IMG/VR virus record: IMGVR_UViG_2721755662_000004
From: a virus
Lineage: Duplodnaviria; Heunggongvirae; Uroviricota; Caudoviricetes
Strand: one strand, 5' to 3'
Length of the DNA: 64,000 bases
This document shows, piece by piece, positions 60,629 through 62,450 of this stretch. The notes below the pieces were generated by a model. That model worked only from the letters and a program-made list of their open reading frames with translations. It did no database searches and was not told the DNA's origin. Every line of letters starts with the position of its first letter. Position 1 is the stretch's first letter. The position numbers were made by a program, and so were the translations under genes.

Positions 60629-60874
60629 AGTTTTATGTCCTTTCGATTCGTTCAGATCACCCCGTGTTCAGCAGGGCGGTCGGGTACTTGAACACCGTCG
60701 AAAGTTCGGCCCGCATCCTTAGCCTTACGGCTGTTTTTCGGTATACGCGCTACCCGACCATATCTGAAAAATGGACATAAAAAATCCGCATGACTGACGG
60801 GCGCGGTTTCCGCTTTCGAAGGTGTGTTCAGCACCATGGAGCGGAATATATCCCCGTTAATGCGGATTTGTCAA
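60629..60874 (-). promoter_or_regulatory. Leader cassette (promoter, terminator-like hairpin, spacer)
   Basis: Minus-strand TTGACA-N18-TATATT (plus-strand 60845-60874), hairpin followed by TTTTTTATG, about 150 nt to the ATG. Confidence 0.55.
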
Positions 60875-60882
60875 ATCTGGCC

Positions 60883-61512
60883 TTAAAACTCGAATTGTCT
60901 TGCCCGCAGGCTTTTCAGCATTGGCATGGCCCGCTGGATAACGGAACTTGACATGTCGAGACGTGTTACCTCCCTCAGTAGCGCGTCTCTGTTCTTCGTC
61001 ACCATGTAGATGGTCTCAAACGCAATGTCATACAGCTTGTTCGTGTATGAGGAGTTCAGCTCTTTCATAATGGGATACAGGTGTTTGCTGATGTCCTGGG
61101 CTTTTTCCATCCAGAGCTGCATGTAGCAAAGGAGGATGATTTCCTCGGCTGTGAATTGCGGCTGTGGTTCTGCTTGTACTGGCTGAATGTTGCGAAGTTT
61201 CTTTTCGCACTCGATGAAGTAGCGGCGTATCTGGCGGCCTTTTTCGTTACGTTCAACCATCGCAAGCTCTTTGGCTGTGTCGAGGGTGAGGTGGTAATCC
61301 TTGCGGCGGCGGCCTGGAGTTTTCGCCAAATTTGGCGAAAATAGAATGTAGTCTAAATTTTCTACGAATCCATACTCGTTTAGCCTGGCCCGTATCCAGT
61401 TAGAAAAATCTTTACCTACCTCTAAAAATCCATGCAAATCACGCGCGTTCACCAGAAGCGTAGGTTCATTTGAGATTGTACCTTCAAACACAGGGATGAG
61501 TTGAGTGGTCAT
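60883..61512 (-). CDS. AntA/AntB-domain antirepressor
   Basis: 210 aa from the Met at 61512 (MTTQLIPVFEGTI...); C-terminal 95 aa identical to 16768..17433. Confidence 0.7.
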   Translation of the reverse strand: MTTQLIPVFEGTISNEPTLLVNARDLHGFLEVGKDFSNWIRARLNEYGFVENLDYILFSPNLAKTPGRRRKDYHLTLDTAKELAMVERNEKGRQIRRYFIECEKKLRNIQPVQAEPQPQFTAEEIILLCYMQLWMEKAQDISKHLYPIMKELNSSYTNKLYDIAFETIYMVTKNRDALLREVTRLDMSSSVIQRAMPMLKSLRARQFEF

Positions 61513-61784
61513 GATGACCTCCTTTGGCTTTTTTCGAGAAATGCCACCACAAGATGTGGTGCCGGGAGGCTCGAAACGGCCCAAAAGATACCGCGGACTT
61601 ATTCCCCTTGCGGGTGTTGTATTCGTCGCCCTCCCGACATTGATCGGGGATGTGACCGCACACTGTGCTATCACTGAATAACAGGCATAAAAAATCCAAC
61701 ACTGACGGGGTTGGTTTAATCCGCTTTTGGGAGGTTTTCGAGGCCTCGGCGCGGAGTATAGTCAGTATTGGACGCAGTCGTCAA
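61513..61784 (-). promoter_or_regulatory. Leader cassette
   Basis: Minus-strand TTGACG-N18-TATACT inside the 3' end of the upstream gene; hairpin CCAACCCCGTCAGTGTTGG followed by TTTTTTATGC. Confidence 0.55.
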
Positions 61785-62046
61785 CCATCGCAAGCTCTTT
61801 GGCTGTGTCGAGGGTGAGGTGGTATTCCTTGCGGTTGTGACCGCCTCTACCTTTTGCTTGCCAATTTTGGCAAGCAATCACAAAATCTTGATTTTCAACG
61901 AATCCATATTCACCCAGCCTGTCCTTGATCCAGTGAGCAAACATTTTACCAATACCAAGAAAAGCGTGCAGATTGCGAGCATTGCAAAGTAAAACTGGTT
62001 CGTTGTTGATGGTTCCATCGAAAACGGGAATGAGTTGATTAGTCAT
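61762..62046 (-). CDS. Stand-alone AntA-domain protein (truncated paralog)
   Basis: 94 aa from the Met at 62046 (MTNQLIPVFDGTI...), ending shortly after the AntA domain. Confidence 0.55.
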   Translation of the reverse strand: MTNQLIPVFDGTINNEPVLLCNARNLHAFLGIGKMFAHWIKDRLGEYGFVENQDFVIACQNWQAKGRGGHNRKEYHLTLDTAKELAMVDDCVQY

Positions 62047-62286
62047 AATTATGACTCCTGACGTTTTAGTATTGACTGCCACCTTAGTGGGGGGGGGCGG
62101 GCTTCAACTACCGCGTCAGACGGCGGAGCGTATTTCCCGAAAGGGTATTGTATTAGGCTCTCTCGACCCGCCATTGATATGGCGATACCTGTAAACAGGC
62201 ATAAAAAAGCCGCAAAGCTATCGGGTGCGGTTGACCGCTGACGTTGTAGTGCGGTCAGTATGCGATAGCTCTGGCGGATTTGTCAA
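62047..62286 (-). promoter_or_regulatory. Leader cassette
   Basis: Minus-strand TTGACA-N17-CATACT; hairpin followed by TTTTTTATGCC; C-rich tract before the SD. Confidence 0.5.
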
Positions 62287-62450
62287 ATCGTGCAGTAACA
62301 TCCTTTTCTTCCTTGCCATTTCTCAATGATGACAAAGGGTGGATTCGGATTGGTATTGGGACAAAAGTGAGACACACAAAGCTTTGCATCGGCTTACAAA
62401 GCTTTGCATGTTTTTCAATGTTGGGACGTGTGAGCGCAGAAATGACGGGC

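Follow-up and report, generated by a model that had tools for sequence, protein, structure and literature searches.

Cassettes built on sRNA-Xcc1-type RNAs precede antirepressor genes of an Escherichia coli prophage and resemble the c4 antisense lock

Previous work showed that P1 c4 RNA blocks translation of ant at the ribosome-binding site (RBS), and that P1/P7 heteroimmunity results (review, PMC12197685). At the Gifsy-1 isrK-STnc1160(orf45)-anrP locus, a single promoter gives a leader that ends at a leaky terminator and, past it, a readthrough transcript that is both antirepressor mRNA and the precursor of a stable RNA (Hershko-Shalev et al. 2016, PMC4825925). The short IsrK leader is complementary to the downstream RNA and activates antirepressor translation in trans, and the IsrK authors cited P4 immunity as a structural analogue (PMC4825925). 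The small RNA (sRNA) sRNA-Xcc1 of Xanthomonas campestris was published as trans-acting, integron-borne and linked to virulence regulators (Chen et al. 2011). Copies ahead of an ORF6N gene in APSE phages and ahead of symE in Xanthomonas integron cassettes have received passing mention. In the literature searched, sRNA-Xcc1 was linked to antirepressors or c4 in passing mentions only, and a review of phage sRNAs from 2025 includes c4, IsrK and sar and nothing of the Xcc1 kind (PMC12197685). Here we describe the right end of a prophage in IMG/VR record IMGVR_UViG_2721755662_000004, a stretch of 64,000 nucleotides (nt; the window), in which three cassettes, A, B and C, each join a promoter, a short leader and an RNA of the sRNA-Xcc1 family to the start of an antirepressor-type gene; two further cassettes of the same prophage, D and E, carry C4 RNAs. 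We propose that each of the three is a self-encoded antisense-RNA lock on antirepressor translation, like that of P1 c4 but with an sRNA-Xcc1 RNA replacing C4, and we regard this reading as probable. C4-type control of antirepressors is itself already known; the proposed Xcc1-based lock is new in the literature searched.

The three cassettes lie in the last 2.4 kb of the prophage, on the minus strand, and run from promoter to antirepressor start at 60874-60626 (A), 61784-61510 (B) and 62286-62044 (C). An earlier note on this DNA had described a promoter, a hairpin with a U-run and a gap of about 150 nt before each of three right-end antirepressor genes, and all of these elements are present on the minus strand. 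It took the gap for plain spacer; the ~150-nt "spacer" is instead a conserved structured RNA, and it is the core of the device. Each of the three cassettes has a match to sRNA-Xcc1 (Rfam RF02221, gathering score 53 bits) precisely in the interval from U-run to start codon, and because the promoters stand at a fixed distance from RNA-family matches with E-values of 3e-7 to 7e-13, the cassettes are beyond chance. The RNAs of A (60670-60759, 67.7 bits) and B (61553-61638, 73.4 bits) exceed the gathering score, and an sRNA-Xcc1-like RNA in C (62088-62172) was matched at 49.9 bits (E 2.9e-7). R1, a covariance model that we built from 112 Xcc1-type sequences, scored the B and C RNAs at 93.4 and 50.1 bits, respectively.

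The fold has three elements: a long closing stem, hairpin 1 (AAUACAA internal loop, CCC/GGG tip) and hairpin 2. When the 112 sequences were aligned without fitting to this structure, 79.6% of cells were paired, compared to 65.0% in shuffles, in support of the Xcc1 fold. The covariation score was 0.37 versus 0.13 for shuffled alignments, none of 500 shuffles scoring as high; double changes were found in 15 of the 18 base pairs, and the model-fitted alignment was 87.7% paired. RNAalifold on a plain MAFFT alignment lost the closing stem to indels, and the structure was named by hand and its pairs counted instead. AUG precedes the stem; of 93 cassettes, 61 have NCC as the tail that follows it and 21 have ACCA, the tail of cassette B and of the two C4 copies as well. 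The distance from the RNA to the start codon is 37-41 nt in A-C, with the gene's own Shine-Dalgarno (SD) sequence and no intervening, icd-like open reading frame (ORF). An RNA of this family is made in quantity: the single sRNA-Xcc1 locus of EDL933, 89 nt, gave about 40,000 reads with almost no ribosome footprints and was among the most abundant non-translated RNAs (PMC5331693). Its length is that of the 933W match.

In each of the three RNAs, the loop of the second hairpin is designated b', and the single-stranded junction after hairpin 2 is designated a'. A three-way match is one in which the same RNA stretch is complementary both to a site in the leader (a1 or b1) and to a site before the start codon, at or near the SD (a2 or b2). 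RNA 6-8-mers with such double complementarity were found in A-C, and their two positions in the RNA are those seen in C4 cassettes D and E too. In cassette A, b' CUUUCGA (60698-60704) faces UCGAAAG twice, as b1 (60813-60819) in the leader (60779-60844) and as b2 (60640-60646) in the target (60626-60670), where it overlaps the SD AAGGA (60638-60642) ahead of the start codon at 60626-60628. The a' of the same RNA, GUGUUCA (60689-60695), faces UGAACAC twice, at a1 (60824-60830) and a2 (60664-60670), each in a hairpin loop. In cassette B, a' UUUCGAG (61570-61576, the 3' junction) is complementary to CUCGAAA at both a1 (61736-61742) and a2 (61532-61538); b' CUUUUGGG (61580-61587, the hairpin-2 loop) pairs with b1 CCCAAAAG (61724-61731) in the leader (61689-61754) and, with one G.U pair, with b2 CCAAAGGA (61520-61527), which overlaps the SD AGGAGG (61518-61523). 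This target (61510-61538; start codon 61510-61512) has the same layout in close relatives. In cassette C, b' CUGACG (62114-62119, again the hairpin-2 loop) faces CGUCAG twice, as b1 (62238-62243) in the leader (62203-62256) and as b2 (62058-62063) in the target (62044-62063), overlapping the SD AGGAG (62055-62059); the start codon is at 62044-62046.

Dinucleotide shuffles of the RNA reached the observed match in 0 of 5000 cases for A, 123 of 5000 for B and 148 of 5000 for C. The a'/b' sets of the five cassettes are distinct, save for a UUUCGA common to A, B and D. Since the a'/b' sequences of A, B and C differ, the three would be largely independent locks. Duplexes of complete RNAs with complete leaders, computed with RNAduplex, had large energies that lacked specificity, and exact k-mers and short-segment duplexes were used instead.

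The same complementarity was found across the family. With the a'/b' positions left free, a motif scan for the conserved hairpin-1 sequence yielded 120 viral loci and 120 genomic ones, among them 208 unique cassettes. Three-way matches 6 nt or longer were present in 82% of the viral-contig cassettes and 57% of those in genomes, as against 17-20% of non-cognate pairs and 10% of shuffled RNAs; at 7 nt or longer the viral figure was 54%, against 3.5% and 1%. Match positions formed two peaks, at the hairpin-2 loop and at the 3' junction. In 75 of 94 cases 8-11 nt separate the end of b2 from the start codon, so that the site overlaps the SD, and a2 ends 17-21 nt upstream of the start. Duplex energies of short segments favoured cognate partners in the pre-start region (-18.8 vs -13.0) and in the leader (-26.3 vs -18.1).

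The clearest evidence is a group of 14 distinct cassettes with the same RNA body and different hairpin-2 loops, which include CUCGUUGA, CUUGUA, UCGUGAA, CUCACUGA, UGUUUGU and CUUUAGC. In 12 of the 14, the complement of the loop is found both beside the SD GAGG and in the leader: loop CUCGUUGA is accompanied by UCAACGAGG and UCAACGCGG, and loop UCGUGAA by UUCACGAGG and UUCACGCGG. The a' segment co-varies as well among same-body cassettes, UUUCGAA occurring with UCGAAA and UUUUGAG with CUCAAA. The cassette of Vibrio phage Strym, which shares 72% identity with cassette B across leader and RNA, has a KilA-N gene downstream and carries a b', UUUCCUUG, that matches CAAGGAAA twice. Ahead of the 933W ant gene, b' CUUAUUUG likewise matches CAAAUAAG twice. 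The anatomy of the cassettes, the base complementarity and its coordinated variation across relatives are thus demonstrated.

The gene downstream is of antirepressor type in at least 85 of 148 cases. Domains among the 148 downstream ORFs were Bro-N (26), Rha (15), KilA-N (14), AntA (11), P22_AR_N (10) and ORF6N (9), and four of the ORFs were SymE toxins. Phages with the cassette are unrelated in type and in host (Vibrio, Pasteurellaceae and Pseudomonas among others), and the Shiga-toxin phages 933W, TL-2011c and P13771 (O104:H4) carry it. Tandem Xcc1-type copies were seen elsewhere, at L060 12427-12776 and L084 5626-5975 (two copies, 257 nt apart) and also at L008 10091-11209, and Xylella Temecula1 has five copies about 385 nt apart (PMC12189769); lock arrays are therefore not unique to this prophage.

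Promoters were sought with a sigma-70-like consensus over 59900-62500, matches being counted out of 12. Six sites were obtained, versus 2.9 +/- 1.4 in shuffles, and the three best-ranked were those of cassettes A (TTGACA/18 nt/TATATT, 60874-60845, 11/12), B (TTGACG/18 nt/TATACT, 61784-61755, 10/12) and C (TTGACA/18 nt/CATACT, 62286-62257, 10/12), all on the minus strand. The spacer, put at 17-18 nt in the earlier note, is 18 nt in all three and never 17. The middle promoter had been placed inside the 3' end of the truncated ant gene; this holds for the -35 (61779-61784), which lies in the last codons of the truncated AntA gene, but the -10 (61755-61760) is just beyond the stop codon (61762-61764).

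A hairpin of 5-6 bp with a U-run follows each promoter at 40-65 nt: CCGCG/UGCGG with loop CCCGUCAGUCA in A (60779-60806, ending ...GCGGATTTTTTATGTCC), CCAAC/GUUGG with loop CCCGUCAGU in B (61689-61714, ending ...TTGGATTTTTTATGCC) and CCGCA/UGCGG with loop CCCGAUAGCUU in C (62203-62230, ending ...GCGGCTTTTTTATGCC). The U-run is U6 in each and ends in AUG(C/U)C; from its end to the ATG there are 150 nt in A, 176 nt in B and 156 nt in C. None of the three leader hairpins was called by a canonical terminator scan, because their loops are 9-11 nt. The A-C leaders matched no Rfam family, isrK (RF01394) and c4-a1b1 (RF03163) included, at E up to 10. Between leader and RNA, 163 of the 208 related cassettes have a T5 run, compared to 50 and 22 of 208 in control segments, and the hairpin before it has covarying stems and a conserved loop, CCCG(U/A)(C/U)AG, in 93 of 208 cassettes versus 6 of 208 in the control. 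The distance from the conserved-loop hairpin to the T-run is 15-17 nt in every case, and RTGC is common after the run. For the conserved leader loop, CCCGUCAG, no convincing partner was found in the RNA. A 1-2-3-4 attenuator (CCGC/GCGG/CCGCA/UGCGG) was weighed for A and C and dropped, since B is without it. A separate pairing was noticed in cassette A, where UUUUUUAUGUCC just after the leader hairpin (60779-60790) is complementary to GGACAUAAAA between SD and start (60631-60640); the two pair in the predicted full-length fold of A, and the pairing was not seen in B or C.

Five cassettes ahead of antirepressor-type genes had been counted in this prophage, and five there are, A-E all lying within the one element. 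Cassette D (16490-16770, plus strand) consists of a promoter, an isrK/c4-a1b1 leader (16516-16603), a C4 RNA (16630-16714) and an ORF6N gene from 16768; cassette E (18075-18354, plus strand) consists of a promoter, an isrK/c4-a1b1 leader (18101-18190), a C4 RNA (18216-18299) and an ORF6N gene from 18352. Their a' and b' segments occupy the same two places in the RNA, with the same order of targets, as in A-C, and the arrangement of D and E is that of P1 immI. The five leaders do not, however, form one alignable unit as had been supposed: two are isrK/c4-a1b1 with C4, and three are a different leader with sRNA-Xcc1. Rfam C4 (RF01695) had no match in 59900-62500 at E up to 10, and R1 found only the A, B and C copies in the window and not the C4 loci; the only R1 match near a C4 locus was on the wrong strand, with E 0.53. 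The five cassettes are one architecture with two RNA families.

The suggestion that the cassette is a modular, recombining unit is borne out. The C-terminal 94 amino acids (aa) are identical between the AntA gene (these codons at 60883-61164, minus), which has an Xcc1 leader, and the ORF6N gene at 16768-17433 (plus), which has a C4 leader. The AntA domains of the two AntA genes are 98% identical over 54 nt, and this homology stops exactly at the -35 of cassette B; the 72% identical Strym cassette precedes a KilA-N gene. The cassette A promoter resembles those of the C4 cassettes, and the cassette C promoter is equal or nearly identical to that of the 933W ant cassette; the b sites of these two differ. 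As an observation in its own right, the AntA and ORF6N genes show one effector domain joined to two N-terminal domains and two RNA locks.

Under the proposed mechanism, a strong promoter would give a ~60-nt leader that contains a1 and b1 and ends in a weak hairpin and U6. Readthrough would add a ~85-nt tRNA-like RNA (closing stem, rigid hairpin 1, b' loop, a' junction and NCC(A) tail), and a2 and b2 would then be transcribed, b2 on the antirepressor SD. C4 is reportedly matured at its 5' end by RNase P to a stable product of ~77 nt, as Hartmann et al. are said to have found in 1995. With AUG before the stem and ACCA or NCC after it, the Xcc1-type RNA would appear to have the look of a C4-type RNase P substrate. 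By analogy it may be excised from the readthrough transcript, with RNase P acting at the 5' end, and accumulate in the lysogen, where it would pair with a2/b2 and block antirepressor translation from its own transcript and from that of an incoming phage of the same specificity. Competition for a'/b' by the leader, either as the terminated RNA or in cis on unprocessed transcript, would set a threshold, and a burst of antirepressor could be made before the RNA builds up.

Several points weigh against this reading. No experiment on any Xcc1-type cassette turned up in the literature searched, and the cassettes have no coupling ORF of the P1 icd kind. The b2 match in cassette B requires a G.U pair. 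Cassette C has the b interaction only (6 nt) and precedes a truncated gene, and its RNA, being under the gathering score, is a borderline member of sRNA-Xcc1. The family sample is not unbiased, as the scan demanded the conserved hairpin-1 sequence. Neither Rfam C4 nor R1 links C4 and Xcc1, and descent from a common ancestor is unsupported. Among Xanthomonadaceae-type copies, the founders of the family, only 3 of 25 have a three-way match; the mechanism is therefore not extendable to the whole Rfam family, its extension to the Xanthomonas founders was rejected, and the reinterpretation is confined to phage-borne, antirepressor-linked members. The Xanthomonadaceae copies (L125, L134, L152 and 22 others) have a closing stem GGGAGGG/CCUCCC, SD-like and anti-SD, beside a downstream GGAGG SD, and may work differently. 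Finally, leader matches are stronger than SD matches, and the leader may be the main target, with control at termination.

In termination control of the P4 CI or N15 CA type, the processed RNA would pair mainly with a1/b1 of the nascent leader, the weak hairpin and U6 would terminate transcription and so shut off the antirepressor, and pairing at the SD would be secondary. The a1/b1 sites of A-C do lie directly upstream of the hairpin and U-run, and hairpin and T-run, with the conserved loop, are kept in the 163 of 208 cassettes noted above. Leader complementarity is also the more specific, the cognate partner falling in the top 5% for 100 of 149 leaders and for 53 of 149 pre-start regions. 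The order is no different in N15, where an isrK-type leader with an annotated terminator is followed by C4, and the processed RNA reportedly promoted termination at that terminator, in the account of Ravin et al. from 1999. It is because leader pairing is stronger than SD pairing that termination control is taken seriously. Termination alone, however, does not need the tight b2-SD distance, the hairpins are weak and were missed by the terminator scan, and the short leader of the IsrK locus acts on translation. We think it unlikely that SD pairing is secondary; translational and termination control are not mutually exclusive, and termination has to be reckoned with as a co-mechanism or rival.

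A purely cis-acting RNA switch would have the 5' untranslated region alternate, shifted by a signal, between pairing of a'/b' with a1/b1 (SD open) and with a2/b2 (SD closed). The minimum-energy fold of full-length cassette B is of the first kind, the leader pairing with a'/b' and the SD region being unpaired (z = -3.7, 0 of 200 shuffles as stable), and two alternative conformations are reported for the long transcript in the IsrK study. The full-length fold of cassette A, in contrast, retains the Xcc1 structure, and the tRNA-like closing stem and NCC(A) tail are typical of a processed stable RNA. The EDL933 locus, moreover, yields a very abundant short non-translated RNA, and P1 c4 acts in trans and confers immunity, and we consider a switch confined to cis quite improbable.

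It is very unlikely that the RNAs act in trans on host or plant-host targets, as published for Xanthomonas and proposed for Xylella, with the position before antirepressors incidental. The literature does describe sRNA-Xcc1 as trans-acting and controlled by HrpG/HrpX, and the Xanthomonadaceae copies are mostly without a local three-way match, but the variable bases of the phage-borne RNAs track the adjacent leader and SD cassette by cassette, the downstream gene class is consistent, and the conservation pattern is explained without a host target. The remaining reading, that of the earlier note, in which readthrough of a promoter-proximal terminator is set by Q, N or CI and the next 150 nt are passive spacer, gains from the strong consensus matches of the promoters and from the fact that a promoter with a close hairpin and U-run is also the lambdoid late-promoter layout, but is scarcely credible for a "spacer" that is a conserved structured RNA with covariation, whose variable loop co-varies with two flanking sites, and whose cassette occurs in unrelated phages (Vibrio, Pasteurellaceae, Pseudomonas) without one common antiterminator. 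No nut- or qut-like element was seen, no search aimed at one having been made. We saw no sign that Q, N or CI governs readthrough, and the sequences follow the logic of an antisense RNA supplied with a decoy and targets of its own. In sum, the earlier description was correct and the mechanism misread.

The prophage is of the 933W/POCJ13 type, from E. coli, and the region is 100% identical to FORC_043 and four other complete genomes. Its int gene, at 1-1164, is cut by the left edge of the window, and its right end is inserted in ynfG, beside ynfF. Downstream of cassette A is a gene of 210 aa with Bro-N and P22_AR_C domains (59996-60628, minus), followed by a GGAGC-UUCG-GCUCC hairpin and U-run. 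Downstream of cassette B is an antirepressor gene of 209 aa with AntA and P22_AR_C domains (60883-61512, minus); these domain assignments are from Pfam and annotation. Cassette C is followed by a truncated gene of 94 aa with the AntA domain only (61762-62046, minus; Pfam AntA 4.4e-25), a partial pseudogene in the PGAP annotation. The true start of the complete AntA gene is the ATG at 61512 and not the GTG at 61674 of the ORF list. The 263-aa ORF of the window (60883-61674) that starts at this GTG, upstream of the RNA, reads through the RNA gene, and in Vibrio phage Strym (L243 1074-1388) the start of the kilA-N coding sequence is annotated within the RNA; in both, the true starts are the SD-preceded ATGs downstream of the RNA.

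Other features of the prophage were noted in passing. A sixth antirepressor-type gene, with Rha and KilAC/ANT domains (19104-19832, plus), comes after the gene of cassette E and a hairpin with U-run, and is without an RNA lock of its own. Rfam matches to sok antitoxin RNA (110 bits, 14477-14651, plus) and STnc100 (165 bits, 21441-21646, plus) were found; 933W has hok/sok at the equivalent position. A tail-region gene contains collagen-like GXY repeat arrays (37100-38100, plus), and a giant LPD5-type protein of 2784 aa is encoded at 47992-56346 (plus), as one is in 933W. Between cassette C and the ynfG remnant there are two direct copies of GATGCAAAGCTTTGT (62372-62411, minus), and the corresponding place in 933W, beside attR, is occupied by another repeat, TTTTGCCCCAATAGTGCCCCAAACA; both repeats are probably arm sites of the integrase.

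Antirepressors determine prophage silence, that of Shiga-toxin phages with such a cassette included, and the proposed lock offers a concrete, testable mechanism for their control and a function for an Rfam family now annotated as a trans-acting virulence sRNA. It would mean that the c4 logic of RNA, decoy and RBS site was built at least twice, on different RNA scaffolds, and that a hypervariable loop with matched targets supplies natural orthogonal translational repressors of relevance to phage-phage conflict and synthetic biology. Phage-borne Xcc1-type RNAs occur in Gamma-, Beta-, Alpha- and Deltaproteobacteria. A bolder idea, which we hold only tentatively, is that phage-borne sRNA-Xcc1 is a second widespread family of programmable immunity RNAs, in which hypervariable loop, decoy and RBS site form a private address, and cassette arrays are orthogonal locks by which co-resident and incoming phages read each other. 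Were this so, an incomer with the same address would find its antirepressor silent, and a foreign leader RNA or a mismatch would let antirepressor be made and induce the resident prophage. The "virulence sRNA" annotations would then be recast, the RNAs being guards of toxic or regulatory genes that mobile elements carry.

How do the three cassettes compare with the described systems? The published sRNA-Xcc1 is integron-borne, whereas the A-C RNAs are in prophage 5' untranslated regions by attR and have local targets. P22 sar is, as proposed for A-C, a small RNA that blocks antirepressor translation at the RBS, but it comes from the opposite strand across the ant RBS; the A-C RNAs are same-strand and upstream, and pair through short loops. 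In P4 immunity (CI RNA, seqA/seqC), a processed leader RNA is complementary to one upstream and one downstream site, as in A-C, but the outcome is premature termination of replication-gene transcription, and the RNA family and controlled genes differ. The Gifsy-1 and N15 loci have an isrK leader with C4 RNA, as do cassettes D and E, and A-C are outside that class; the N15 antirepressor RNA was considered as an Xcc1-type RNA and rejected, being C4 with isrK. Translation in Gifsy-1 goes via the upstream orf45, an ORF that has no counterpart in A-C.

The closest likeness is to P1/P7 immI (Citron & Schuster 1990; C4 RF01695, c4-a1b1 RF03163), where promoter, a1/b1, RNA and a2/b2 on the RBS follow one another on the same strand as in A-C. 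Cassettes A and B have both segments of this layout and C has b only. As compared with P1, the Xcc1 cassettes have no icd-like leader ORF, the antirepressor start following directly, and their leader hairpin has a large conserved loop. The first hairpin of Xcc1 is longer than that of C4 and has an invariant AAUACAA...CCC/GGG core. In both kinds of cassette the second hairpin presents b' in its loop and a' is at the 3' junction, and both RNAs have a long closing stem with AUG before it and NCC(A) after it, and specificity bases that vary between relatives.

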